A stretch of DNA of 64,000 nucleotides, from NCBI GenBank assembly GCA_017935485.1, contig JAGBHO010000047.1:2285-66284 (forward strand), read 5' to 3'. Under the pieces are notes generated by a model. That model ran no database searches. It saw nothing but the letters and a program-made list of their open reading frames with translations, and had not been told where the DNA came from. The DNA comes from Alphaproteobacteria bacterium (lineage in GTDB: Bacteria; Pseudomonadota; Alphaproteobacteria; RF32; CAG-239). Position 1 is the stretch's first letter, and each line of letters starts with the position of its first letter. The translations under genes were made by a program, and so were the position numbers. Of this stretch, positions 32,125 to 53,413 are shown piece after piece.

Positions 32125-33084
32125 TTATTTTTGCAGCCGTTTTAAGATAAAATCTGTCAGTTCCTGTGGATTTTCCCATTCAACGGAAATTTCCAGCACA
32201 TTGAAATGCGGCTGCAACATGGTCGGAATTTTTACGAAATCTTTGGCCGTGGTGAATAGTTCGGCATTAAAATAATGAGCTTCGTGGAGGAGATTTTGCA
32301 ACTCGTCTTCGGTATAGAAATGATGATCGCCGAAGTCAAAGGTTTTTATCAGGGTAAAGCCGAGTTCTTTTAACGAGTTGTAAAATTTCTGCGGGCGGCC
32401 GATGCCGGCGAAAGCGATAATGTTTTGCGGCGGCAGTTCGGGGGGCAGAGCTTTTACCTTTCCGTAAAAAACAGGCAGTTTTTTCAGGCGTTTTGCCAGA
32501 TTGTGCTTATCTTCTCCCAGAATGATTGCGGCCTGTGCCCGTTTTAAGCCGGCGGCAAAATTTTCGCGCAGCGGACCGGCCGGAATATATCTGCCGTTGC
32601 CGATGCCGGTGGCACCGTCAAAGACCAGAAATGACAAATCTTTATATAATCCGGGGTTTTGAAAACCGTCATCCATTACAATGACGTCAGCGCCGTTCTG
32701 TACGGCCAGCTCAGCTCCCTGAGCACGGTCGGGGTTAATGACGGTTTGTGCCTGACGGGCAAGAAGCAACGGTTCGTCACCGGTTTGGCGGACATCGTAA
32801 CGTGTCGGGTCTGCAAAAATGTTGCGGCTTTTGCCGCCGTAACCGCGGGTAACGAAAAAAGGGTTTTTACCGGCCTGCTGCAACATTGCGGCAATGGAAA
32901 CGGAAACCGGCGTTTTGCCGGTGCCGCCGGCCGTCAGGTTGCCGACACAGATGACCGGACAAGCGGCCTTGCGGCTTTTTTTGAAGCGGAGGCGCAATCC
33001 GGTGGCAAGGGCATACATCCGGCCCAGCGGACTAAGCAGGTCTGACAGAAAGTTATCGCTGTTCCAGAAAGAAGGCGTTTTCAT
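32125..33084 (-). CDS. lpxK: Tetraacyldisaccharide 4-prime-kinase LpxK
   Basis: 319 aa; Walker A VGNLTAGGTGKTP typical of LpxK. Confidence 0.85.
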   Translation of the reverse strand: MKTPSFWNSDNFLSDLLSPLGRMYALATGLRLRFKKSRKAACPVICVGNLTAGGTGKTPVSVSIAAMLQQAGKNPFFVTRGYGGKSRNIFADPTRYDVRQTGDEPLLLARQAQTVINPDRAQGAELAVQNGADVIVMDDGFQNPGLYKDLSFLVFDGATGIGNGRYIPAGPLRENFAAGLKRAQAAIILGEDKHNLAKRLKKLPVFYGKVKALPPELPPQNIIAFAGIGRPQKFYNSLKELGFTLIKTFDFGDHHFYTEDELQNLLHEAHYFNAELFTTAKDFVKIPTMLQPHFNVLEISVEWENPQELTDFILKRLQK

Positions 33085-40360: not shown

Positions 40361-41104
40361 ATGAAAATGTATATTATCATCGGATTATTGATTATCGGGG
40401 CAGGGTTGCTTGCTTATGATGTTAAGCACAATTATGTGGACTGGCGGACAGCAGACCGCAGCAGTGCCGGAATAGCGCCTTTGCCAAAAGACGAAAAGCA
40501 GGCAGTCGTGCAGGTTTATACTGCCAGAGTTTATAACTGGCGCAAGTATTTTGCAGTGCATCCGTGGATTGCAACAAAAGACAAAAACGCCGATCATTAT
40601 ACCGTTTATCAGGTTTTGGGGTGGAAGCAATGGCGGACAGGCAATGCCGTTGATGTTTCCGAAGACGTGCCGGACAGAAAATGGTATGGCATGAGCCCGA
40701 CATTGTTACAGGATTTGCGCGGAGAAGAAGCAGAAAAGGCAATTTCCGGAATCAAAAAAGCGGTTGCAAATTATCCTTTTGCCTCTGAATATGTTTTATA
40801 TCCGGGGCCGAACAGCAATACTTTTATTTCTTATATTATCCGTCAGGTGCCGGAATTAACGGTTGAATTGCCGCCGATTGCGATTGGCAAAGATTTTCTG
40901 GGATATAATAAGTTTTTTGCCAAAGCAGAGAGCAAAAAAGGGTATCAATTTTCATTGTTCGGCCTTTTCGGTCTGACGGTTGGCAAAGGCGAGGGACTGG
41001 AGATTGATATTTTGGGGCTGGTTTTTGGTATAGATTTTCTGCGCCCGGCTATCAAACTGCCGTTTATCGGCCGTTTGGGTATGTCTGACGCGCCGGTGGA
41101 TTAA
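40361..41104 (+). CDS. Hypothetical N-terminally membrane-anchored protein (possibly DUF3750-like)
   Basis: Start MKMYIIIGLL with AAGAGGG SD; one TM then a soluble domain. Confidence 0.4.
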   Translation: MKMYIIIGLLIIGAGLLAYDVKHNYVDWRTADRSSAGIAPLPKDEKQAVVQVYTARVYNWRKYFAVHPWIATKDKNADHYTVYQVLGWKQWRTGNAVDVSEDVPDRKWYGMSPTLLQDLRGEEAEKAISGIKKAVANYPFASEYVLYPGPNSNTFISYIIRQVPELTVELPPIAIGKDFLGYNKFFAKAESKKGYQFSLFGLFGLTVGKGEGLEIDILGLVFGIDFLRPAIKLPFIGRLGMSDAPVD

Positions 41105-41121
41105 TGAGTTGGAATTTGTGT

Positions 41122-41775
41122 ATGGCTGATTTTATTGTTATTGATAAGAGAGAATGGAAGCGGCGGGAGTATTTTGAGCATTATTACCGGCAGGTTCCCT
41201 GCCGCTTCAGCCTGACGGTTGAACTGGATGTTACCCGACTGGTGCAAAGCGTGAAAAAGCAGGGGCTGATGTTTTTTCCGGTTTTTATTCATTTGCTGGC
41301 TTTGGTCGTTAATCGCCATCAGGAATTCCGGACAGGGTTTAATTCGTCCGGAGAACTTGGCTATTGGCGGCAAGTCTGGCCGGAGTATACGGTTTTTCAT
41401 CCTCAAACCCAGAGCTTTTCTACGTTATGGACACCGTTCTCCGAGAATTTTGATGAGTTTTATCTTAATTATGTTCGGGATTGGGAAAAATATGGTGAAA
41501 TTGAGGGCTTTGCTCCCAAGCCGGAGAGGCCGGAAAATGTTTTTAACATTTCCTGTCTGCCTTGGGTGAATTTTACGTCTTTCAACCTTGATTTGCCGCG
41601 TTCCGATAATTATCTGCTGCCGATTTTTACGCTGGGGAAATTTGTTGAAAAGAACGGCGGAATTTTTGCGCCGCTGGCTTTGCAGCTGCATCATGCGGTT
41701 TGCGATGGTTTTCATGCCGCCTTGCTGATTGACGGGTTGCAGGAGTTGTGTAACGGTTTTGGGAGAGAAAAATGA
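41122..41775 (+). CDS. catA: Chloramphenicol O-acetyltransferase, type A (CAT)
   Basis: Block similarity to CATIII along the whole length; active-site His motif HHAVCDGFHAA; start at MADFIVIDKREW. Confidence 0.85.
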   Translation: MADFIVIDKREWKRREYFEHYYRQVPCRFSLTVELDVTRLVQSVKKQGLMFFPVFIHLLALVVNRHQEFRTGFNSSGELGYWRQVWPEYTVFHPQTQSFSTLWTPFSENFDEFYLNYVRDWEKYGEIEGFAPKPERPENVFNISCLPWVNFTSFNLDLPRSDNYLLPIFTLGKFVEKNGGIFAPLALQLHHAVCDGFHAALLIDGLQELCNGFGREK

Positions 41776-42582: not shown

Positions 42583-42713
42583 TTTATTTCTCCTTTACTT
42601 TTACTTAATTATATAATCATTTTGTTTTTTCTGCAAATATATAATGTTTACATAATATGTTATGATTTTGTTCTGCCAAAGCCGGCAGAATGTTTTTATG
42701 GACAGGAGTGAAA

Positions 42714-43322
42714 ATGATTTATGGATATATTCGCGTAAGCAGCGACAAACAGACGACGGAGAATCAGCGTTTTGAAATTGAGCGTTTTGCAGAAGGCAAT
42801 GGAATTGTGATTGAAAAATGGATAAATGAGACCATCAGTGCAACTAAAGATTTGGAAAAGCGAAAACTCGGCAGGCTTCTTAATGTGCTGAGAACGGGGG
42901 ATATTTTGATTTCTTCCGAGTTATCAAGGTTGGGGCGGAATTTGTTGCAGGTTATGAGTATTTTGCATTTTTGCATGAAGAAAGATATTCAGGTTTGGAC
43001 GATTAAGGACAATTATCGTCTGGGGGCGGATATTCAATCCAAGGTTTTGGCTTTTGCATTCGGATTGTCGGCCGAAATTGAGCGGAATCTGATTTCTCAG
43101 CGTACAAAAGAAGCTTTGGCCCGTTTGAAAGCCGAAGGAAAACGGCTGGGGCGTCCGAAAGGCAGCGGCAACAAGTCTGCCAAATTAAGCGGCAAAGAAG
43201 AAAAAATTGCCGAGATGCTCAGGGAAAATATGTCAAAAAAGAAAATTGCGCAATATTTTTGCGTCAGTCGGCGTACCTTGTATAATTTTATGAAAAAACA
43301 ATTGATAAGCGGGAATAAATAA
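42714..43322 (+). CDS. Serine recombinase (resolvase / DNA invertase family) with C-terminal HTH
   Basis: Start MIYGYIRVSS (catalytic Ser in YIRVSSDKQ); resolvase catalytic domain followed by an HTH. Confidence 0.8.
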   Translation: MIYGYIRVSSDKQTTENQRFEIERFAEGNGIVIEKWINETISATKDLEKRKLGRLLNVLRTGDILISSELSRLGRNLLQVMSILHFCMKKDIQVWTIKDNYRLGADIQSKVLAFAFGLSAEIERNLISQRTKEALARLKAEGKRLGRPKGSGNKSAKLSGKEEKIAEMLRENMSKKKIAQYFCVSRRTLYNFMKKQLISGNK

Positions 43323-43497
43323 CGGACATATAATTTTCTCATATGGCGCTATCTTAAATAATAAAAAAAATTATTCAAGCACTATTTATATAAAAGTGAC
43401 AGTTTTATTGGATAAATTTTAACTGCCTGTCTCCATATGTTTTATTTTTGCCCAAAATAACTTTCGTGATTTTTTATGAGAAAATTATATGTCCGTT
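43322..43497. promoter_or_regulatory. Candidate invertible promoter: 130-bp segment between perfect 23-bp inverted repeats, carrying TTGAAT-16-TAAGAT on the minus strand
   Basis: IR-L 43322-43344 AACGGACATATAATTTTCTCATA; IR-R 43475-43497 is its exact reverse complement; -35 at 43374-43379 and -10 at 43352-43357 (minus strand). Confidence 0.55.
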
Positions 43498-43749
43498 TTC
43501 AGGGCATTAAAGATGCGTAATTGGAGAGTGTTTGGAGTTTTGCTGACATGGCGATTACAGGCAGTAGAGCGAGTGTTTGTCTGATGTCGTCAGGAGTATC
43601 AGGTACGGATGATTATCGGGGTGTTCCGGCTATGTTCAGGAAATATATATTTCTAAAATCCGGAAGGTACCGTTTTATATCTATTTTATTTGCCGGTATT
43701 TGTCACCATCCCGATAACTCTTATGTTCTCCGCCGGGCAGGAGTTTTTT

Positions 43750-44613
43750 ATGGTTAAAATTTCGGTATTGATGCCGGTTTACAATACAGATGAAAAATTT
43801 TTACGGCAGGCAATAGAAAGTATTTTGGAGCAAACGTATCAGGATTTTGAATTTCTGATTATTAATGACTGTTCTTCCGATGCCCGTGTTGAGAAGGTGG
43901 TTTTATCTTATAAAGACAAGCGGATTAAATATTCGGTCAATTCTCAAAATCTGGGGATTTCCGGAACGCGGAACAAATTGATAAGTCTGGCCAAAGGTGA
44001 ATATTTGGCTGTGATGGATCATGATGATGTTTCTTTGCCGGAACGTCTGGAGAAAGAAGCCGCTTTTCTTGATGCTCATCCGGAAGTCGGCGTTGTCGGA
44101 TGTGCCGTCCGTTATCTGGGGACGCCAAAGGTCAGAAAACTGCCCGAAGATGATGGCAGTGTCAGAGAAGCTCTTGTCTTTTTCAGCCCGTTTTGTCATC
44201 CGGCCACGATGATCCGCAAATCCGTTTTACAGAATTGCGGTGTTGCTTATGAAGCCGAATTCAGTCCGGCTGAGGATTATGCCTTATGGAGTCGCCTGAT
44301 GTCGGTGACGAAATTTGCCAATTTGCCGGATGTCCTTTTTGAATATCGGGATTATTGCGGCAATACAACACATTCTCAAAAAGAAAAAATGCAATCGGCA
44401 GCCAGTCGTGTTCAGCAGAGCATTCGTCAGGCTTATCCGGCTCTTTGGGCAAAGGCAAAAGAGAATGCCGATTGGGTAAAAAGGATTAAGCTGTTTGGTT
44501 TTTTACCTTTTTTGACAATCAGAAAGCGGTGCAATTTTCACGAGGCGAAGTTGTTTGGCATTTTGCCGCTGTGGTCTGAGAGAATAAAATATTCAGCAGG
44601 AGGAGAAAAGTAG
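43750..44613 (+). CDS. Family-2 glycosyltransferase
   Basis: Start MVKISVLMPVYN; DxD motif DHDD. Confidence 0.75.
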   Translation: MVKISVLMPVYNTDEKFLRQAIESILEQTYQDFEFLIINDCSSDARVEKVVLSYKDKRIKYSVNSQNLGISGTRNKLISLAKGEYLAVMDHDDVSLPERLEKEAAFLDAHPEVGVVGCAVRYLGTPKVRKLPEDDGSVREALVFFSPFCHPATMIRKSVLQNCGVAYEAEFSPAEDYALWSRLMSVTKFANLPDVLFEYRDYCGNTTHSQKEKMQSAASRVQQSIRQAYPALWAKAKENADWVKRIKLFGFLPFLTIRKRCNFHEAKLFGILPLWSERIKYSAGGEK

Positions 44614-44614
44614 C

Positions 44615-45499
44615 ATGAAGGGCATTATTCTTGCCGGCGGCAGCGGAAGCCGATTGTATCCGCTGACGCAAACCATTTCAAAACAACTGCTGCCGGTTTA
44701 TGACAAGCCGATGATTTATTATCCGTTGTCAACCTTATTGTTGTTCGGTATCAGGGAAATTCTGATTATTTCAACGCCCAAAGATACACCGAATATTCAG
44801 GCTTTATTTAAGGACGGTTCCCATTTGGGGCTGCAAATTCATTATGCCATTCAGAATGAGCCGAAAGGAATTGCCCAGGCTTTTACCATCGGTGCCGATT
44901 TTATCGGAGATGACGATGTTTGTCTTATTTTAGGAGACAATATTTTTTATATGGGCGGGCAGATTGATACTTTTCGCACAGAAGTTTTGCGCAATCCGGG
45001 AGCGACGGTTTTCGGGTATCATGTTTCTGATCCCGAGCGTTTTGGCGTGGTGGAATTTGATAAAGACTTTAAAGCCGTTTCTATCGAAGAAAAGCCGGTG
45101 AAGCCGAAATCTAATTATGCCGTGGTCGGATTGTATTTTTATAAATCGGATGTTGTGGAAAAAGCCAGAAACCTGCAGCCTTCGGCGCGCGGCGAATTGG
45201 AAATTACCGATTTGAACAAGCTTTATCTGGAAGAGGGGAGGATGAATGTGGTGCCGATGCGGCGCGGCAACGCCTGGCTTGATGCCGGTACGCCCGACAG
45301 CCTGATGGAGTCTTCCCAGTTTGTACAGATTATCGAGCAACGGCAGGGGCTTAAAATTGCCTGTATTGAGGAAATTGCCTATCGGCGCGGTTTTATTAAT
45401 GACGAACAGATGGCGGCTTTGATTGCCTCGCTTAAAAACGGCTGTGCTTATAAGAAGTATCTGCAGAAGATTTATGAGGAGTATCATGGAATTTATTAA
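44615..45499 (+). CDS. rmlA: Glucose-1-phosphate thymidylyltransferase
   Basis: 294 aa; GGSGSRLYPLT signature. Confidence 0.9.
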   Translation: MKGIILAGGSGSRLYPLTQTISKQLLPVYDKPMIYYPLSTLLLFGIREILIISTPKDTPNIQALFKDGSHLGLQIHYAIQNEPKGIAQAFTIGADFIGDDDVCLILGDNIFYMGGQIDTFRTEVLRNPGATVFGYHVSDPERFGVVEFDKDFKAVSIEEKPVKPKSNYAVVGLYFYKSDVVEKARNLQPSARGELEITDLNKLYLEEGRMNVVPMRRGNAWLDAGTPDSLMESSQFVQIIEQRQGLKIACIEEIAYRRGFINDEQMAALIASLKNGCAYKKYLQKIYEEYHGIY

Positions 45500-46034
45500 G
45501 ACGGAAATTGACGGTGTTTATATTTTGGAACCGCGGGTTTTTGAAGATGCCAGAGGGTATTTCTTTGAGATTTACAATCAAAATGAATTTGCCGCGCATG
45601 GCCTGGATTATGACTTTGTGCAGGATAATCAGTCGAGGTCTTCTTACGGCACTGTCCGCGGACTGCATTTTCAAAAAGGGGCGTTTGCGCAAGCCAAGCT
45701 GGTGCGCGTGATTGAGGGGACAGTGCTGGATGTCGGTGTTGATTTGCGTTCCGGTTCCAAGACTTTCGGAAAATATGTTGCGGTCGAATTGTCAGGCGAA
45801 AACAAGCGCCAACTCTTGCTGCCGCGCGGTTTTGCCCATGGTTTTTCCGTATTGAGCGAAACTGCGGTGTTTTCTTATAAATGCGATAATTTTTACAATC
45901 CGGCGAGCGAAGGCGGTATTCGTTTTGATGATCCGGATCTGAATATTGATTGGAAAGTTAACCTTAAAGATGCAGTGCTGTCGGATAAGGATTTGAAAAT
46001 GCCGTTTTTTAAGGAGTGTGAGCCTTGTTTTTAG
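45486..46034 (+). CDS. rmlC: dTDP-4-dehydrorhamnose 3,5-epimerase
   Basis: Start MEFIKTEIDGVYILEP; cupin fold motifs (RGLHFQ). Confidence 0.85.
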   Translation: MEFIKTEIDGVYILEPRVFEDARGYFFEIYNQNEFAAHGLDYDFVQDNQSRSSYGTVRGLHFQKGAFAQAKLVRVIEGTVLDVGVDLRSGSKTFGKYVAVELSGENKRQLLLPRGFAHGFSVLSETAVFSYKCDNFYNPASEGGIRFDDPDLNIDWKVNLKDAVLSDKDLKMPFFKECEPCF

Positions 46035-46849
46035 TAACGGGAGCGAACGGGCAGCTGGGGCAGGAACTGCGGCTTATTCTCGGGGATAAGGCCGTGTATG
46101 TCGATTATGCCGATTTGGATATTACGGATGCGGCGGCGGTCAGGGAGTTTTGCCGGACGCGGGAATTTGAGGCGATTATCAATTGTGCGGCTTATACGGC
46201 AGTGGACAAGGCGGAAAGCGAGCCGGAAAAAGCGCAGAACGTGAATGTGAACGGGCCGAAGAATTTGGCAGAAACCGGTATTCCTCTGATTCATGTTTCA
46301 ACGGATTATGTTTTTGACGGTCAGAGTTGCCGTCCTTATAAAGAAAATGATTTGCCGGCACCGCATTCGGTTTACGGACGGACCAAGCTTGCCGGAGAAC
46401 AGGCTGTTTTGGAGAGAGCTTCGGCAACGTTTGTTTTTCGGACTTCCTGGCTGTATTCGCCGTTTGGCAACAATTTTGTGAAGACGATGCTACGGCTGGG
46501 TGCTGAAAGGGACGTACTTAAGGTGGTGTTTGACCAGATCGGGACGCCGACTTATGCCGCTCATCTGGCGCAGGCGGTAGTTGCTGCTTTGCCGTATTTG
46601 AAAAAAGGGAGCAGGGAGGTTTATCACTTTAGCAATGAGGGTGTTTGTTCCTGGTATGATTTTGCCGTGGAGATTATGGCGCAGGGCGGACGGAATTGCA
46701 AGGTTTTGCCGATTGAAAGCAAGGATTATCCGACAGCGGCGGAGCGTCCGGCCTTTTCGGTGCTGAACAAAGAAAAGTTTAAAACAAGTTTTGGGATGGA
46801 AATTCCCCATTGGAAGAAAGGGCTGGAAGAATGTCTGAAGCGATTTTAG
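46025..46849 (+). CDS. rmlD: dTDP-4-dehydrorhamnose reductase
   Basis: 274 aa; GANGQLG Rossmann motif. Confidence 0.85.
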   Translation: MFLVTGANGQLGQELRLILGDKAVYVDYADLDITDAAAVREFCRTREFEAIINCAAYTAVDKAESEPEKAQNVNVNGPKNLAETGIPLIHVSTDYVFDGQSCRPYKENDLPAPHSVYGRTKLAGEQAVLERASATFVFRTSWLYSPFGNNFVKTMLRLGAERDVLKVVFDQIGTPTYAAHLAQAVVAALPYLKKGSREVYHFSNEGVCSWYDFAVEIMAQGGRNCKVLPIESKDYPTAAERPAFSVLNKEKFKTSFGMEIPHWKKGLEECLKRF

Positions 46850-47838
46850 TTACCGGCGGCGCCGGATTTATCGGTTCTAATTTTGTGCCGTATTTTGTAA
46901 ATAAATATCCGGAATATCAGGTGATTAATCTGGATAAACTGACTTATGCCGGTAATTTGGACAATCTGGCAGAATGTGCAGGTAAGGCAAATTACCGTTT
47001 TGTGCAAGGAGATATTTGTGATGCGGCGTTTGTTGAAAAGCTGTTTGCGGATTACGACATTCGCGGGGTAGTTCATTTTGCGGCGGAAAGCCATGTTGAC
47101 AATTCGATTTCCGGCCCGCGCCCCTTTGTTGAAACAAATATTGTCGGGACGTTCAACTTGCTTGAAACCGCCCGGAAGCATTGGATGGACGCGCCGGCGA
47201 AATGCAAGCCCGGTTATGAAAAATGCCGTTTTCATCATATCTCGACCGATGAGGTTTACGGCTCGCTGGGTGAAGACGGATTTTTCAAAGAGACAACGCC
47301 GTATGCGCCGAATTCACCTTATTCGGCTTCCAAAGCAAGTTCTGATTTTCTGGTGCGGGCGTATTTTCATACTTTCGGTATGAACGTGACGACTTCTAAC
47401 TGTTCAAATAATTACGGTCCGAAGCAGCATCCGGAAAAGCTGATCCCCAAGATTATCAGCAATTGCCTGAACGAAAAGCCGATACCAGTTTACGGCGACG
47501 GCAAGAATATCCGCGACTGGCTGTATGTGCTTGACCACTGCAAAGCGATTGATTTGATTTATCATCGGGGCAGAGCCGGTGAGACCTATAACGTGGGCGG
47601 GCATAACGAGAAGACCAATCTGGAAATCGTTTCGGAAATCTGCCGGATTATGGATAAAAAGAAACCGCGTGCCGGCGGCAAGAAATATGCCGATTTGGTT
47701 ACTTTTGTAGCTGATCGCGCCGGACATGACAGGCGCTATGCCATTGATGCCGACAAACTGACAAACGAACTGGGCTGGAAAGCCGATGAGAATTTTGCTT
47801 CCGGCATTATCAAAACCGTGGAGTGGTATGTGAAATGA
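46831..47838 (+). CDS. rmlB: dTDP-glucose 4,6-dehydratase
   Basis: Start MSEAILVTGGAGFIGSNF; YxxxK (YSASKASSD) catalytic motif. Confidence 0.9.
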   Translation: MSEAILVTGGAGFIGSNFVPYFVNKYPEYQVINLDKLTYAGNLDNLAECAGKANYRFVQGDICDAAFVEKLFADYDIRGVVHFAAESHVDNSISGPRPFVETNIVGTFNLLETARKHWMDAPAKCKPGYEKCRFHHISTDEVYGSLGEDGFFKETTPYAPNSPYSASKASSDFLVRAYFHTFGMNVTTSNCSNNYGPKQHPEKLIPKIISNCLNEKPIPVYGDGKNIRDWLYVLDHCKAIDLIYHRGRAGETYNVGGHNEKTNLEIVSEICRIMDKKKPRAGGKKYADLVTFVADRAGHDRRYAIDADKLTNELGWKADENFASGIIKTVEWYVK

Positions 47839-49580
47839 AGCCAATACTTGTTCATGCTCATGTTTTTTATTCCGAATTATGGCCGGAGCTTAAATCTTGC
47901 ATCCAAAATCTGGCCGATTATCCGTTTGAGCTTTTTGTAACAATGGTTGTTGATAATAATGAGCTTAAGGCTGATGTAGTGTCGGCTTTTCCCAAAGCTC
48001 ATATTGAGGTTGTTGAAAACCGGGGTTTTGATGTGGGGCCGTTTGTTCATGTATTAAGCCAAGTCGATTTGGATGATTATAGTTATGTTGTGAAGCTGCA
48101 TACCAAACGGGATATGTTTTTGGGCGCTCATTTGAAATATTTTGATATGTCTGGAGCAAAATGGCGTCTTTATGCGTTGGCTATTTTAAAGTCTGAAAAG
48201 GTTGTAAAAAATATAATAAGCGCTTTTGAAAAAGATAAAAAGCTGGGGATGGTGGCGGATTATCATCTGATTGTCAATAAAGAACAAGATGATATTCAGG
48301 CTCAACAGGAAGCAATAAAAATCTTAAAACAACTTGGGTATGAGAATATATCTTATGGTTATGTTGCCGGTACAATGTTTTGGTGCAGAGCATTTCTTCT
48401 CAGCCCCTTAAAAAGGCTGGGTTTTGATCTCTCTGATTTTGAAGAGTCTTCCGCTCATTGTAAAATTTCTACAAAGGCTCATGTGCTGGAACGTTTGTTG
48501 GGATGTCTGGTCTTTGCTCAATCTCAAAAAATTGCAGATTCTATCACTTTTATACAGTTTTCTGGAAAAATCTGTGAAACAGGCCGGAAAATGAAGAGGT
48601 TTTTCTTTCAAAGGAAAATGGATTGTACAGGAAAAATAAAAGTTAAAATATGTGGAATCGGTTTCTCTATAGAGAAATGTAGAGATAGAATATGTAATAA
48701 GGGAAGTAAAATGATAGTTAGTAATATTCTTTCTGTTGATGAGGTTTCTTTGTCGAATAATAAAAGACTTAGATGTTTAGTTTCTAGCCTTCGTCATCCG
48801 TTTAATAAGCAAAAACGTAGAAAATTGAGGGAAGAGCTAATTGAAAAGTATAAAGTAAGAAAATCTTCTTTTAAAAAGGATCCTAATTTCAATGTAAAAG
48901 ATATTCCTATATATTTGATATCTTATAATAGGCTAGGATATTTACAGCAAATGATAACCAAGCTAGAGATGTATGGTCTTACAAATATTCATATTATTGA
49001 TAATCATTCTGATTATGAGCCTTTGTTGGCATATTTAAATGTATTGCCTTATCATGTTTATTTCATGGATAAAAATTATGGACACAGGGTATTTTGGGAG
49101 TCAGGTTTATTTGATGATATCATTCAACACTCTTTATATATAGTATCAGATCCAGATATTGAGTTTAATGCAGATTTGCCTGATGGTTTTTTGTCAGAAT
49201 TATACCGTCTGTTAGGGGAGTATAAGTGTGTAACTAAAGTTGGTTTTGCATTAAAAATAGATGATTTGCCTCAGAATAAGGTTAATGAGACGGTTATTGC
49301 TTGGGAAAGTCGTTTTTGGAAAAACAGACTGAAAGATCGCCTTGATATTTATCATGCAGATATAGATACGACTTTTGCATTGTATCGTCCTGGAAAATTA
49401 GATGAAAGATTTTTTTACTCAGCAATTCGTGTGGCAGGGAATTTTACTGCTAAGCATTTGCCCTGGTATCAAAATGGAAATAATGCTGATGATATTAAAC
49501 ATTATAATCGGACATCTGATTCAAGATTTGCTTCTTGGACAAAAGATATTCAACGTTATAATAATATAATGGAGGGATGA
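47835..49580 (+). CDS. Rhamnan-synthesis protein F (RgpF)-like rhamnosyltransferase fused to a C-terminal glycosyltransferase-like domain
   Basis: About 580 aa; N-terminal RgpF-like block; GC content drops sharply from about 48600 onward, suggesting domain fusion or acquisition. Confidence 0.6.
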   Translation: MKPILVHAHVFYSELWPELKSCIQNLADYPFELFVTMVVDNNELKADVVSAFPKAHIEVVENRGFDVGPFVHVLSQVDLDDYSYVVKLHTKRDMFLGAHLKYFDMSGAKWRLYALAILKSEKVVKNIISAFEKDKKLGMVADYHLIVNKEQDDIQAQQEAIKILKQLGYENISYGYVAGTMFWCRAFLLSPLKRLGFDLSDFEESSAHCKISTKAHVLERLLGCLVFAQSQKIADSITFIQFSGKICETGRKMKRFFFQRKMDCTGKIKVKICGIGFSIEKCRDRICNKGSKMIVSNILSVDEVSLSNNKRLRCLVSSLRHPFNKQKRRKLREELIEKYKVRKSSFKKDPNFNVKDIPIYLISYNRLGYLQQMITKLEMYGLTNIHIIDNHSDYEPLLAYLNVLPYHVYFMDKNYGHRVFWESGLFDDIIQHSLYIVSDPDIEFNADLPDGFLSELYRLLGEYKCVTKVGFALKIDDLPQNKVNETVIAWESRFWKNRLKDRLDIYHADIDTTFALYRPGKLDERFFYSAIRVAGNFTAKHLPWYQNGNNADDIKHYNRTSDSRFASWTKDIQRYNNIMEG

Positions 49581-50452
49581 TGCCTAAAGTTTCTGTACTA
49601 ACACCTTTATATAATACGAATAAAGTACATTTGCAAGAAATGATTGCTTCAGTATTGGAACAGTCATTTCAGGATTTTGAGTTTATTTTGTTAAATGATT
49701 CTCCTGAAAATAAGGAGATTGAACAAATTGTTAAATCTTATAAGGATAAAAGAATAAGATATTATTGTAATGAAAGAAATTTGGGAATTTCGGCCAGCAG
49801 AAATAAATTAATTGATTTGGCAAAAGGGGAATATTTGGCCATTTGTGATCATGATGATATTTCTGTTCCGGATAGATTTGAAGCACAGGTTGCTTATTTG
49901 GATAAGAATCCTGCAGTAGGTGTTGTATCTGGTTTATGTGAAGTTTTTGGTGGTGGAACACATGTGTTTCAGCAGCATCCGGAGTTTGATTTGGATATAA
50001 AAATTCATTTGACGAAAGGTTGTTATTTGGCACATCCAGCATCAATGATACGAAAAAGTGTGTTGTTATCTAATGATATTTGTTACAATGAAAGATATTC
50101 TCCCGCGGAAGATTATAAATTGTGGGAAGATTTAATAGATGTTACAAATTTTTATAATCTACAAAAAGTTTTGTTAAAGTATCGAAGTTTTGATGCAAAT
50201 ACTTCTGTTTTGCAAAATAGAATTATGATTGAAGCATCAAGAAAAATACAGTTGGAAATTAGAGATAAGCACCCTTCTTATTATGATGAAATATCTAGAG
50301 AAATTCCGCTTTCTGAAAAGACTTCCGAAAAGGTTTATTATAAACTATTCGGGATAGTTCCACTGATTAAGATTACCAAGAATAAAGTTTATTTGTTTAA
50401 CATTGTTCCGTTGCTGACAATAAGGAGAAAAACATGCAGAAGCCCAAGATAA
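49577..50452 (+). CDS. Family-2 glycosyltransferase (paralog of the 43750 gene)
   Basis: 291 aa; SVLTPLYN...DHDD; AT-rich. Confidence 0.75.
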   Translation: MMPKVSVLTPLYNTNKVHLQEMIASVLEQSFQDFEFILLNDSPENKEIEQIVKSYKDKRIRYYCNERNLGISASRNKLIDLAKGEYLAICDHDDISVPDRFEAQVAYLDKNPAVGVVSGLCEVFGGGTHVFQQHPEFDLDIKIHLTKGCYLAHPASMIRKSVLLSNDICYNERYSPAEDYKLWEDLIDVTNFYNLQKVLLKYRSFDANTSVLQNRIMIEASRKIQLEIRDKHPSYYDEISREIPLSEKTSEKVYYKLFGIVPLIKITKNKVYLFNIVPLLTIRRKTCRSPR

Positions 50453-51400
50453 CTTTAGGAATTGTTTTTTACAATCAACGAAATTTTATTAAGGATGCTA
50501 TAGCTTCCGTGAAGAATCAGACTATTGATGGGTGGGAATGTATAATTTATGATGATGGGTCTTCAGATGGTTCGGATGAGATAATTTTACGTGAAATATG
50601 TAATGATGGTCGTTTTATTTTTAAACGTTCAGAGAAGCGTAATTTTACACCGTCTGTTGGTCGGAATTATTGTTTGGATCATGTAAAAGGAAAATATGTA
50701 TGTTTTCTGGATGGCGATGATATGTTGGTTAAAAATGCTTTCGAAATTATGTATGGCGTAGCGGAAGCCGGAAATTGTGATATGGTGTCTTGCGGGGCTC
50801 CAAATTATAATATTTCAGTTCCTGTCGATTTTCACTATCATACGGATTTGCCGGCTGCTGGATGTGTAAATGATATTGTTTTTGTGAATACCCCAGTGCC
50901 AGATGGTAGTGCATGGAGATTAAATGGTGATATTGAAAATGGTTGGATCTGGGGTATTCTTTATAAAAAAGAAACTATAAAAGATATTCGTTTTGATTAA
51001 AAGCTGAGACCTTATGAAGATTCATTGTTTTTTATGAATGCATCTCTGGTGATTAAAAGATTTGCGGTAATGAAGACTTCCAGTGTTTTTCATAGAGAAA
51101 ATTCAGGTATTACGAATAAAGGAATAAGTGATGAGATCTTACCGGCAATAGACTCGTTTTTTCAAAAAGCATATTTATTAATCGGTGAGCAATACAGGGG
51201 GGGGGGTATATGATGCCTGGTTGAAAAATATGTGTCGAATATTGCTAAAGCATACGTGGTATATTTATAAATATTGTTATGCAGAGACGAAAGATAAAGT
51301 AAATCTTGTGAGAAAAATTCGTGATTATGCTAAGCCGTATGAAAAATTTGAACCGTGCGGATTAAAAATAATGTTACGCAAACTAAGAATGAAATTGTAA
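50434..51400 (+). pseudogene. Family-2 glycosyltransferase disrupted by an in-frame TAA (50998-51000, in the expected FDEKLRPYEDS motif) and a G10 homopolymer frameshift; candidate phase-variable gene
   Basis: Frame 1 runs 50434-51213; G10 at 51197-51206. With G9 the reading frame would continue to 51400. Confidence 0.6.
51197..51206 (+). repeat. Poly-G tract (10 G) inside the GT2 pseudogene
   Basis: Counted directly from the sequence. Confidence 0.95.
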
Positions 51401-51414
51401 AAAGGAGATTATAA

Positions 51415-52677
51415 ATGAAGTGGAATAAGCCGGGGCATGAGTTTGATGAGTTAGGCGGCAAGTTTATTAAAAACCGAAAGTTGATTGTGATTGGAGATGA
51501 CTTTGATCAGGCCAGTTTTTATCTAAATCGCAGGATAACGGATGTATTGCAGTTCTTAAATGTTCCTGTTAAATTGGTAAAGTTTTCAATAAAAAATCTT
51601 CAAAAAAAGTGGTTTACCAAATTAATAATACATATGTTAAACTTTAAATACAAATTGTTCAAGCAACACGCTGTTATTATTACACATTATAAGTATCAAG
51701 ATGTGAATAAGGCTATTATGTTGCGTAATATTTTGAAAGAGATATTTCCTAATCTTATGGTTTATGATTCGACAGAGTTTTTGGAAAAACAAATGTCAAT
51801 ATTTGCAGCGTATGTACAAGATAAAATTTATGTTCGTGATACCTGCATTATTGTTACAACGGGATGTACATTAAATTGTAAATATTGTTTGAATTTTACT
51901 CCTTTTATTAAACATGCAAAATCAATTTCTTTAGAAAAACTAAAAGAAGAAGCAGATATTTATTTTAAGGTTGTTGATTATGTCGGATTTTTTCAAATTA
52001 GTGGCGGAGAACCGCTTACTTATAAATATTTAGCTGAGTATATTGAGTGGGTGGCTGAAAAATATAGTAATCAAATTGGACAGATATTGTTGGCAACAAA
52101 TGGTACGTTATTGCCAGATGAAAGATTGGCAAATGTGTTAAAAAAATATGGTGTTATTTTACTTTTAGATAATTATACTCAAGCGGTTCCATCGACAAAA
52201 CCCACACGCGATAAATTAATAAACTTTTTGGAGGAACATGGTATAGATTCTCGTGATTATGGTGAAAATCAGCAGTTTTTTAAATTTTTTCCAGCCAATG
52301 AAGATTACTCAAAATTATCAGAAAAAGAGCTTTCTGAACGAGCTGATAAATGTTGGGGATTGCAACCTTGGCGAAATTTACGCGATGGGCGGATTTATTA
52401 TTGTAATTTTTCATCCTTTGCCGTTACAGCGGGTATTATTCAGGATGATCCTCGTAATTATATGGATTTGAAAAATTTTGATTGCTCAAAGAAGAAAGAA
52501 TTGCTTGAATTTTTTATGGGCTATTCAGTATTAGGATATGATACTTTTTGTACTTTGTGTAATGGTATAAATGAGAGTAACACCTTGGAACGGCGACCAG
52601 CAGGGGAGCAAGCCAAAGGAAAATTTGGCTGGCATTCCGGAATGACCTTGTCTGAGTTTGAGGAGATGAACTTATGA
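51415..52677 (+). CDS. Radical SAM protein (CxxxCxxC = CTLNCKYC), function unknown, within the glycan cassette
   Basis: 420 aa; canonical radical-SAM cluster motif; extra C-terminal Cys cluster (CTLCNG). Confidence 0.65.
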   Translation: MKWNKPGHEFDELGGKFIKNRKLIVIGDDFDQASFYLNRRITDVLQFLNVPVKLVKFSIKNLQKKWFTKLIIHMLNFKYKLFKQHAVIITHYKYQDVNKAIMLRNILKEIFPNLMVYDSTEFLEKQMSIFAAYVQDKIYVRDTCIIVTTGCTLNCKYCLNFTPFIKHAKSISLEKLKEEADIYFKVVDYVGFFQISGGEPLTYKYLAEYIEWVAEKYSNQIGQILLATNGTLLPDERLANVLKKYGVILLLDNYTQAVPSTKPTRDKLINFLEEHGIDSRDYGENQQFFKFFPANEDYSKLSEKELSERADKCWGLQPWRNLRDGRIYYCNFSSFAVTAGIIQDDPRNYMDLKNFDCSKKKELLEFFMGYSVLGYDTFCTLCNGINESNTLERRPAGEQAKGKFGWHSGMTLSEFEEMNL

Positions 52678-53354
52678 GTTTTTTGAAAAAGTATCGAAAG
52701 CTTTCTCAGAATAAAGCCAGATTAAAACAATTTTATAATGCCGGGAATTCTATAATTATTATAGAGGGCGAAAAGACAATTGTTAATCCAGCTGAATTTT
52801 TAGAACTTGAACTTTTAAGGATTCCTTGGGGGGGGGTGCAACTTATAATACATAGGCCGTTTGCATTTAAAATGTTGTCTTTGGATGTATGTGGTAATTT
52901 GAGTGTTGAAATTTGCGAAAATATTATTGAGCCAGTCGGACATATCAGAATACTTAAGGCTGTCGGTGATGTTAAAAATTATGTATATATAGGAAAAGGT
53001 TCAGGGATAGGGGATGCTGTTTTTGATGTAACACTTCACGGTAATATAGAAATTGGAGATGCATGTACAATGTCTTGGGGTGTTATGTTGAAAACCGATG
53101 ATACACATCCAATTTATCAAAATGGAAAAATAATTAACCGAAGTAAAAATATTATAATTGGTAAGAATGTATGGATTGGTATGCATGCGTCAATTTTAAA
53201 AAATAGTATGATACCTGACGGGGCTATCGTTGGTGCCTATTCGGTAGTGGCCGGGCGGTTCGATGAAAAGAATTCTGTTATAGCGGGAAATCCGGCCAAA
53301 GTTGTAAAACGTGATGTCCAATGGAAATGTGGACTTATTGATTATAATGATTAA
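52674..53354 (+). CDS. Hexapeptide-repeat (left-handed beta-helix) sugar O-acetyltransferase with an internal G9 tract
   Basis: 226 aa; hexapeptide repeats NVWIGMHASILKNSMIPDGAIVGAYSVVAG; G9 at 52828-52836 lies in-frame inside the CDS as called. Confidence 0.65.
   Translation: MSFLKKYRKLSQNKARLKQFYNAGNSIIIIEGEKTIVNPAEFLELELLRIPWGGVQLIIHRPFAFKMLSLDVCGNLSVEICENIIEPVGHIRILKAVGDVKNYVYIGKGSGIGDAVFDVTLHGNIEIGDACTMSWGVMLKTDDTHPIYQNGKIINRSKNIIIGKNVWIGMHASILKNSMIPDGAIVGAYSVVAGRFDEKNSVIAGNPAKVVKRDVQWKCGLIDYND
52828..52836 (+). repeat. Poly-G tract (9 G) within the acetyltransferase CDS
   Basis: Counted directly from the sequence. Confidence 0.95.
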
Positions 53355-53413
53355 TTTTTGTTTCTTTACATTTTGCTTTTTTCTGTAATAATGGAAGAAA
53401 ATAATGATGGGAG

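Follow-up and report, generated by a model that had tools for sequence, protein, structure and literature searches.

Results

An uninterrupted poly-G tract in an O-acetyltransferase gene

The DNA analysed here, referred to as the window, is a stretch of 64,000 nucleotides (positions 2,285 to 66,284 of contig JAGBHO010000047.1) from the assembly GCA_017935485.1 of an uncultured gut alphaproteobacterium of the lineage CAG-239. It carries a rhamnose-type glycan cassette, the last gene of which is predicted to encode an LbH (hexapeptide-repeat) O-acetyltransferase resembling OatWY and NeuO. This study concerns a run of nine G in the 5' part of that gene. Loss or gain of one G would truncate the enzyme, and closely related strains carry different alleles of the tract. 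Coordinates of all features are given in Table 1. The related contigs with which the window was compared (designated L001 and so on) are animal-gut metagenome assemblies.

Read directly from the + strand (...AAGGATTCC TTGGGGGGGGGTG CAACTT...), the tract codons are CCT TGG GGG GGG GTG, which encode P51-W52-G53-G54-V55 in frame within an open reading frame (ORF) of 226 amino acids. The preliminary description of this DNA was thus accurate in placing nine G at 52828-52836, in frame and encoding PWGGV. Only three G runs of at least 6 occur in the window (G6 at 32440, G10 at 51197-51206 and the G9 tract), together with a single C6, and a scan of the whole window found no G or C run of length 7 or 8. 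The G+C content of the window is 43.4%. The number of G/C runs of at least 9 expected per 64 kb is 0.2 under an independent and identically distributed or a first-order model. Third-order Markov simulations lower this expectation to 0.08, and a pair of such runs no more than 2 kb apart arose in none of 300 of them.

Codon choice at consecutive glycines sets the tract apart as well. Long ORFs of the window, 35 in number, contain 74 Gly-Gly codon pairs. GGC comes first in 66 of these and GGG in a single one, the G9 tract itself, as against 16.6% GGG among all Gly codons (binomial p = 2e-5). Such a bias towards GGC would fit a genome that avoids G runs throughout, a background against which the two poly-G tracts stand out. 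Because of the run counts, the simulations and the scarcity of GGG-first pairs, the G9 tract lies far above chance expectation and is a real feature of the gene. Tandem Repeats Finder detected no variable-number tandem repeat within 50400-53400; the repeat is a mononucleotide one, and so is not of the heptanucleotide type known from NeuO.

The tract lies downstream of the genuine start codon

A GAGGAG sequence sits 8 nt 5' of the ATG at 52674, which overlaps the stop codon of the upstream radical SAM gene as ATGA, and coupled gene calls for the two genes recur in all related contigs. The N-terminal 55 codons are conserved at the protein level in full-length relatives of 96, 88 and 60% identity, in which the P-x-G-G-V motif is kept (PWGGV, PSGGV, PKGGV), and Gly53 is invariant even in distant homologues of 183 amino acids. 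Nucleotide differences 5' of the tract, summed over four comparisons, number 10, 10 and 25 at codon positions 1, 2 and 3. Because of this N-terminal conservation, the third-position bias, and the Shine-Dalgarno site with ATGA coupling at 52674, the comparisons indicate that the G9 tract is truly coding and downstream of the genuine start.

The preliminary description had raised a downstream Met (the ATG at 52872 here) as an alternative start, and this did not hold, given the conserved N-terminus and a Shine-Dalgarno sequence at 52674 with none at Met67. More broadly, translation might begin at GTG 52836 or at Met67 with the tract tuning initiation, or OFF alleles might re-initiate at Met67. 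It is true that typical family members have about 183 amino acids and lack residues ~16-50 of the window protein, and that the gene caller gave a 172-aa product from a GTG in the frameshifted strain L011; yet the 55 N-terminal codons are open and conserved down to 60% identity with a third-position bias, and the Foldseek alignment to OatWY (182 columns) reaches into the tract region. Re-initiation is conceivable insofar as the premature stops at 52846 and 52853 lie 19-26 nt before the Met67 ATG, and the activity of NeuO varies with the length of its N-terminus (PMC3046976). By analogy, OFF alleles that re-initiated at Met67 might yield a shorter isoform with altered activity. Against such starts stand the strong Shine-Dalgarno sequence and ATGA coupling at 52674, with no counterpart before Met67, and the absence from a Met67 product of the first beta-helix coils of canonical members. 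We regard this explanation as highly implausible.

With the start at 52674, the consequences of slippage can be read in silico. A G8 variant would end in ...WGGCNL at the TAA at 52846 (57 aa) and a G10 variant in ...WGGGATYNT at the TAG at 52853 (60 aa), whereas G6 and G12 variants would remain in frame. Neither stub includes the beta-helix or the catalytic residues His145 and Trp167. The expectation that a change of one G truncates the enzyme is thus borne out in silico.

The enzyme resembles OatWY and NeuO

Several lines of evidence agree with the earlier assignment of the product to the hexapeptide-repeat O-acetyltransferases. A Pfam Hexapep match covers residues 159-194 (1.1e-7, above the gathering score), and weak NCBIfam matches to WbbJ, WcaF and maltose O-acetyltransferase-type models all fall within residues ~97-216. 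The best solved relatives by sequence are OatWY (2wlc, 3e-23) and NeuO (3jqy, 2e-16), which are also the top Foldseek matches of an AlphaFold2 model (OatWY at 4e-9). The model, built on a 48-sequence alignment, is confident for residues ~100-222; its predicted local distance difference test score is below 50 for residues 1-67, and it therefore gives no verdict on the fold of the tract segment or the stability of a Met67 product. The exact protein is deposited as NCBI MBP3346657.1, labelled 'MAG: acyltransferase [Alphaproteobacteria bacterium]'.

Acetyl-CoA-dependent enzymes of the OatWY/NeuO subgroup are characterised by a catalytic His carried on a protruding loop and a conserved Trp supplied by the adjacent subunit. 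In OatWY, His121 and Trp145 are catalytic (PMC3046976). They align to His145 and Trp167 of the window protein, both encoded 3' of the tract; His145 is invariant in 9 homologues and nearly so in 48, and Trp167 is invariant in 9. Trp195 of OatWY corresponds to the conserved W217, Met108 and Arg148 are replaced by T132 and M170, and Arg197 lies beyond the aligned region. The enzyme is probably mechanistically like OatWY and NeuO, and sialate specificity is unlikely because, among Met108, Arg148, Trp195 and Arg197 of OatWY, only Trp195 is conserved. No sialic-acid pathway genes were seen among the Pfam annotations of the cassette. Homology and the position of the gene within a glycan cassette suggest that the substrate is a polysaccharide.

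Natural alleles of the tract

Independent assemblies were gathered by exact-protein look-ups of the acetyltransferase, its cluster members and the flanking genes. Within the tract-bearing lineage, 15 independent assemblies comprise 11 with G9, one with G10 and three in which a synonymous T interrupts the run (G4TG4). Sampling through the flanking radical SAM gene, a route that does not depend on what state the tract is in, returned seven G9 and one G10. G10 was read in L011 (SRR28154437), a strain with 98.5% identity to the window across 3.3 kb, whose sole private indel is the extra G; a second indel is intergenic and common to three other strains. The TAG stop is used in this strain, and the gene is split into calls of 60 and 172 amino acids. 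Coding-region indels in six strains that are 98-99.7% identical to the window all fall within the two poly-G tracts. The G10 frameshift in so close a relative fits the switch proposed in the preliminary description, and the absence of length heterogeneity that would have spoken against a switch is contradicted between strains.

The length differences might be sequencing or assembly artefacts around a tract that is always G9. Homopolymers are error-prone on several platforms and the G10 allele of the acetyltransferase gene comes from one Logan contig, at assembly level, yet ten other independent assemblies made by different pipelines all read G9. Neither the lack of any other private indel in the 3.3 kb of L011 nor the occurrence of its remaining indel in three strains suits an error-prone contig, and the G10 of the neighbouring glycosyltransferase gene is replicated in three independent assemblies, with G9 in six or more. 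An artefact is, in our judgement, very improbable.

Other comparisons speak to the history of the tract. G9 is kept in two backgrounds, the window type and the L001 type, which differ by 6% in the acetyltransferase gene and 12% across the cassette. The acetyltransferase genes of L003 and L001 differ at a single nucleotide, a G/T difference in the middle of the tract that makes the L003 allele 'locked-ON'. L012 carries the same mid-tract T in an acetyltransferase gene that is a mosaic (sites 360-432 L001-like, the remainder window-like). The long tract is confined to the lineage with W52; compared with the sister sequence TCT GGG GGT GTG, it amounts to three substitutions, each of which lengthens the run. 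Switchable-ON, OFF and 'locked-ON' alleles of the acetyltransferase thus coexist in the population.

Further searches added little. Among metagenome contigs of the JGI, an exact-pattern scan for the conserved flanks, with a tract of any length between them, had no hit, and a protein-based scan found only a 34% relative, the lineage not being in that collection. A scan of GTDB genomes returned one species representative (L010), without the tract (TCT GGA AAT GTT). None of the contigs retrieved through the downstream HydG gene extends to the tract, and the TM1266-like gene led to one more G9 (L022) and three structural variants. Two cluster members were considered as products of tract-OFF alleles and rejected: P0106 has a normal N-terminus and ends at residue 174, which we read as truncation at a contig end, and P0109 has a nonsense mutation at codon 9 in a lineage without the tract.

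Loss of the gene by other routes

Several observations weigh against a tract maintained as a switch. In L024 (90% lineage, nt 219-899), codon 9 is changed from CGA to the nonsense codon TGA; in L021 (nt 1-114), the first 235 nt of the acetyltransferase gene are replaced by unrelated AT-rich DNA; and in L019 (nt 1-1356), a Transposase_mut (IS256-like) gene ends where the acetyltransferase stop codon lies. L021 and L019 are otherwise ~100% identical downstream. The tract is interrupted as G4TG4 in 3 of the 15 tract-lineage assemblies and absent in the sister lineages with S52 and in the 60% homologue. The single OFF allele seen (G10) is an assembly-level call in one assembly, and none of the retrieved contigs breaks at the acetyltransferase tract, unlike the tract of the neighbouring glycosyltransferase gene. 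These comparisons indicate that the enzyme is dispensable and repeatedly lost. Because the losses are repeated and independent of the tract, fluctuating or relaxed selection on the gene is supported, and ordinary decay of the gene might account for OFF alleles.

The preliminary description had also counted absence of the tract from close relatives with an identical gene as evidence against a switch. Such relatives do exist, since L003 and L004 encode a protein identical to that of L001 with TGGGGTGGGGTG. Relatives without the tract are not enough, taken alone, to refute a contingency locus, because wild isolates of Bartonella krasnovii, which vary between ON and OFF in badE, include tract-less alleles of that gene (PMC11466379).

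These observations lend themselves to an alternative in which the tract arose by chance, from codon choice at a conserved Gly-Gly, as an incidental hotspot of mutation within a dispensable accessory gene, and G10 is an ordinary pseudogenising lesion. An invariant Gly53 forces GG-rich codons, yet GGG-first pairs are avoided in this genome (1 of 74; p = 2e-5) and two runs of at least nine G nevertheless lie 1.6 kb apart in glycan-modifying genes. Many relatives have no tract or an interrupted one, as might be expected of an incidental run, yet three run-lengthening changes are needed to derive it from the sister sequence and G9 persists across backgrounds that have diverged by 6-12%. The alternative gains from the knock-outs outside the tract (the L024 nonsense mutation, the L021 truncation and the L019 transposase), from the ON state of 11 of 12 uninterrupted tracts, and from the neighbouring GT2 gene of this genome, where a nonsense codon accompanies the frameshift, as in decaying genes. 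An active inverton at the locus points the other way, to a locus under selection for variability. The physical mechanism is shared with the switch that we propose, and the evolutionary reading alone differs. We consider an incidental hotspot unlikely, though distinctly less so than an artefact or a downstream start.

Downstream of the acetyltransferase gene, a 47-aa ORF and FeoB follow in the L001 lineage (L001-L005), and a TM1266-like gene and HydG (FeFe-hydrogenase maturation) in the lineage of the window. Many contigs end within the 3' part of the acetyltransferase gene (window about 53024-53293). A recombination junction appears to mark the boundary of the cassette.

A second poly-G tract in a glycosyltransferase pseudogene

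The GT2 glycosyltransferase gene upstream of the radical SAM gene contains the other long G run, and both tracts lie in the same codon phase (NGG GGG GGG GTN). An intact GT2 gene of 321 amino acids is found with C+G9 in L001, L002 and L010 and with A+G9 in L009, L014 and L015, while in L012 an A-to-G change produces an in-frame G10. A frameshifted A+G10 is found in the window, in L013 (99.98% identical) and in L016 (100% identical). In L014 and L015, which are 99.4-99.7% identical to the window, the gene is intact. In addition, a TAA replaces the GAA of relatives at 50998-51000 in the window and L013. Because this nonsense codon is present besides the frameshift, the tract is not a working switch here, and the gene is predicted to be locked OFF in this genome, with slippage incapable of restoring the protein. 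The second homopolymeric switch proposed at 51197 thus stands as a tract that is length-polymorphic between strains (G9/G10) and falls as a functional switch in this genome. Three Logan contigs start at this tract or 13 nt before it (L008 at nt 1, L017 at nt 1 and L009 at nt 1-22; window 51184-51206 for the three), which may reflect length heterogeneity within samples or a drop in coverage at the homopolymer.

The upstream inverton

An inverton bounded by perfect inverted repeats (IRs) lies upstream of the first gene of the cassette, and a serine recombinase gene abuts its left IR. The called start of the invertase is at 42714 and that of the longest ORF at 42690. Among contigs with an identical recombinase, four (L026, L030, L031, L032) have the segment in the forward orientation, that of the window, and three (L027, L028, L029) have it inverted (98-100% identity to the reverse complement); the ends of L033 and L034 coincide with the left IR. 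No match to a sigma-70 consensus was found on either strand of 43250-43720, although the promoter consensus of the host may differ. Of the invertible promoter suggested earlier, the inversion is therefore supported by the occurrence of both orientations, and the promoter would be a putative one, no sigma-70-like sequence having been recognised in the segment. Scans for promoter and terminator consensus sequences near the acetyltransferase gene likewise gave nothing useful.

At 41104-41775, upstream of a GNAT gene and the invertase, the window carries a gene for a type-A chloramphenicol acetyltransferase (Pfam CAT, 3e-74). Of the nine loci listed with an identical invertase, one (L029) has the CAT gene in this position and eight have a Ham1p-like gene. 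The CAT gene appears to be a variable and possibly acquired resistance gene.

The cassette and the radical SAM partner

Gene order in the cassette is identical in L001, L010 and L013. It is unusual for a glycan cassette to contain a radical SAM enzyme. Homologues of the radical SAM enzyme (75% identical) and the acetyltransferase (60% identical) adjoin in a different genome context in L006 (3-1876) and L007, which indicates that the two genes form a conserved two-gene module. The radical SAM protein matched no informative family, and its best solved relative is the CteB-like 5wgg (1e-5, core only).

Table 1 Features of the locus in window coordinates, and contigs carrying each allele of the acetyltransferase tract
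Feature	Position	Strand	Details
G9 homopolymeric tract	52828..52836	+	Last 2 nt of W52, G53, G54, first nt of V55
LbH (hexapeptide-repeat) O-acetyltransferase, OatWY/NeuO-like, 226 aa	52674..53354	+	Pfam, PDB sequence hits, Foldseek; last cassette gene
Start context of the acetyltransferase gene	52660..52677	+	GAGGAG 52660-52665; ATG 52674-52676; overlaps TGA 52675-52677 of upstream radical SAM gene
Out-of-frame stops after slippage	52846..52855	+	TAA 52846-52848 (G8); TAG 52853-52855 (G10)
Internal Met67 (ATG)	52872..52874	+	No Shine-Dalgarno-like sequence upstream; unlikely primary start
Predicted catalytic residues	His145 codon 53106-53108; Trp167 codon 53172-53174	+	Both 3' of tract; align to OatWY His121/Trp145
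G9 allele			Window, L001, L002, L008, L009, L013 (= L018), L014, L015, L016, L017, L022
G10 allele (frameshifted)			L011 (SRR28154437)
TGG GGT GGG GTG (G4TG4, synonymous)			L003, L004, L012
TCT GGG GGT GTG			L005
TCT GGA AAT GT(T/G)			L010, L024
AAG GGA GGA GTA			L006, L007
Radical SAM enzyme, 420 aa	51415..52677	+	Pfam Radical_SAM; translationally coupled to acetyltransferase
GT2 glycosyltransferase pseudogene	50434..51400	+	TAA nonsense 50998-51000; A+G10 frameshift 51197-51206; aligned to intact 321-aa L001 gene
Rhamnose-type glycan cassette	43750..53354	+	GT2, RmlA, RmlC, RmlD, RmlB-like, RgpF-like, GT2, GT2 (pseudogene), radical SAM, acetyltransferase (Pfam)
Inverton	43321..43497		Perfect 23-bp IRs 43321-43343, 43475-43497; 131-bp segment between; upstream of first cassette gene
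Serine recombinase (Hin/Gin-type invertase), 202 aa	42714..43322	+	Pfam Resolvase 1.7e-32 and helix-turn-helix; N-terminus MIYGYIRVSS; abuts left IR

Discussion

We suggest that slipped-strand mispairing has a hotspot at the G9 tract, which falls in the first third of the gene for a cytoplasmic OatWY/NeuO-like acetyltransferase. In this scenario, G9 (and likewise G6 or G12) would give the full 226-aa enzyme, and the window would represent the ON state. Gain or loss of one G at replication would shift the frame and bring in a stop 3-6 codons on, and the resulting OFF product of 57 or 60 amino acids would be without the beta-helix, His145, Trp167 and the coenzyme A-binding C-terminus. Such a switch would take away the acetyl decoration alone and leave the glycan in place; no downstream polarity is expected because the acetyltransferase is the last gene of the operon. 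The locus shows three of the features by which a homopolymer contingency locus is recognised: a tract of ~7 nt or more within the ORF past the true start, abolition of the product by a change of one nucleotide, and ON and OFF alleles between close strains.

Slippage between ON and OFF states, together with natural ON and OFF alleles, is in our view the probable explanation of these observations. The further proposition that this is an evolved, reversible and adaptive contingency locus we hold to be evenly balanced. Frequent reversible slippage within a clone, the cassette glycan as the acetyl acceptor, and variation that is adaptive against phage or host immunity are points that we infer.

If the inverton and the two poly-G tracts in the GT2 and acetyltransferase genes all acted as switches, they would produce several glycan states per population. 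Tentatively, and conceding that the balance tips somewhat against it, we put forward a three-layer device in which a Hin-type inverton gates a rhamnan-like operon, one poly-G tract gates a side-chain glycosyltransferase, and a second gates an acetyltransferase that works with the radical SAM enzyme. An equally tentative part of this proposal is that natural populations would hold switchable alleles alongside alleles locked ON (G4TG4) and locked OFF (TAA).

Homopolymer contingency loci are textbook features of Campylobacter, Neisseria, Haemophilus and Helicobacter, and to our knowledge they are hardly documented in uncultured commensals. In Campylobacter jejuni, switching rates have been measured, and as far as we know this organism is without MutS/MutL-type repair. 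Its intragenic G tracts of at least 7 occur in glycan-modifying genes for the capsule, the lipooligosaccharide (LOS) and the flagellar glycans, cluster in surface-glycan loci and switch stochastically between ON and OFF, which resembles the situation proposed here. C. jejuni belongs to another phylum, and strain NCTC11168 has 29 poly-G/C contingency loci (PMC4965091; PMC8355987), whereas the window has two tracts in 64 kb.

A glycan O-acetyltransferase under homopolymer control, layered with phase-variable glycosyltransferases, is also known from the meningococcus in the form of pglI. The PglI enzyme is of the membrane acyltransferase-3 type, not LbH. The gene belongs to the protein-glycosylation system, is phase-variable through a homopolymer and shares its pathway with the phase-variable glycosyltransferase genes pglG and pglH (PMC5445459). 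Within the Alphaproteobacteria, badE of Bartonella krasnovii has G9 and A9 tracts, and its G9 repeatedly gained or lost one G in experimental evolution (PMC11466379). The likeness to the window is a coding G9 in an alphaproteobacterium; the difference is that badE encodes an adhesin of a pathogen and the window gene a putative glycan modifier of a gut commensal.

NeuO of Escherichia coli K1, encoded by prophage CUS-3, is a polysialic-acid O-acetyltransferase made phase-variable by slipped-strand repeats in its 5' coding region (PMC3046976; PMC13001214). It shares with the window gene the LbH glycan O-acetyltransferase family, the catalytic His and Trp and the position of the repeat. The NeuO repeat is a heptanucleotide VNTR, (AAGACTC)n, encoding RLKTQDS heptads that tune activity, whereas the window gene has G9; and the NeuO gene belongs to a prophage, its product modifying polysialic acid, whereas the window gene is chromosomal and in a rhamnose-type cassette, at an identity of about 26-28%. 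OatWY, the capsule O-acetyltransferase of Neisseria meningitidis serogroups W and Y, is the best match in sequence and structure, with His121/Trp145/Trp195 corresponding to H145/W167/W217, and differs in the active-site residues Met108 and Arg148. No homopolymer switch was reported for oatWY in the literature that we consulted.

With the invertible promoters of Bacteroides fragilis and the Hin/Gin invertons, the inverton in the window shares an IR-flanked segment, a serine recombinase, a polysaccharide operon and the occurrence of both orientations. It differs in being combined with intragenic simple sequence repeats (SSRs) in one cassette, and in having no promoter recognised in its segment. 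Our searches found no publication on an OatWY/NeuO-type enzyme that has a mononucleotide repeat, comes from an uncultured commensal and shares its cassette with an inverton and a second SSR. Each element is well known and the mechanism is not new; what gives the locus its value is the population evidence, together with the three-layer arrangement.

Public metagenome assemblies alone reveal ON, OFF and locked alleles of two poly-G tracts and both orientations of an inverton in one 10-kb glycan cassette. For annotation, this carries the warning that 'pseudogenes' in this cassette may be phase states, and the cassette offers a concrete locus at which switching could be measured in situ from reads. 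If the three-layer reading is true, SSR contingency logic would have been recovered purely from metagenomes and outside the classical pathogens. For the organisms themselves, the findings suggest that stochastic variation of surface glycans, probably directed against phage or host antibody, operates in an alphaproteobacterial lineage of the ruminant or animal gut.

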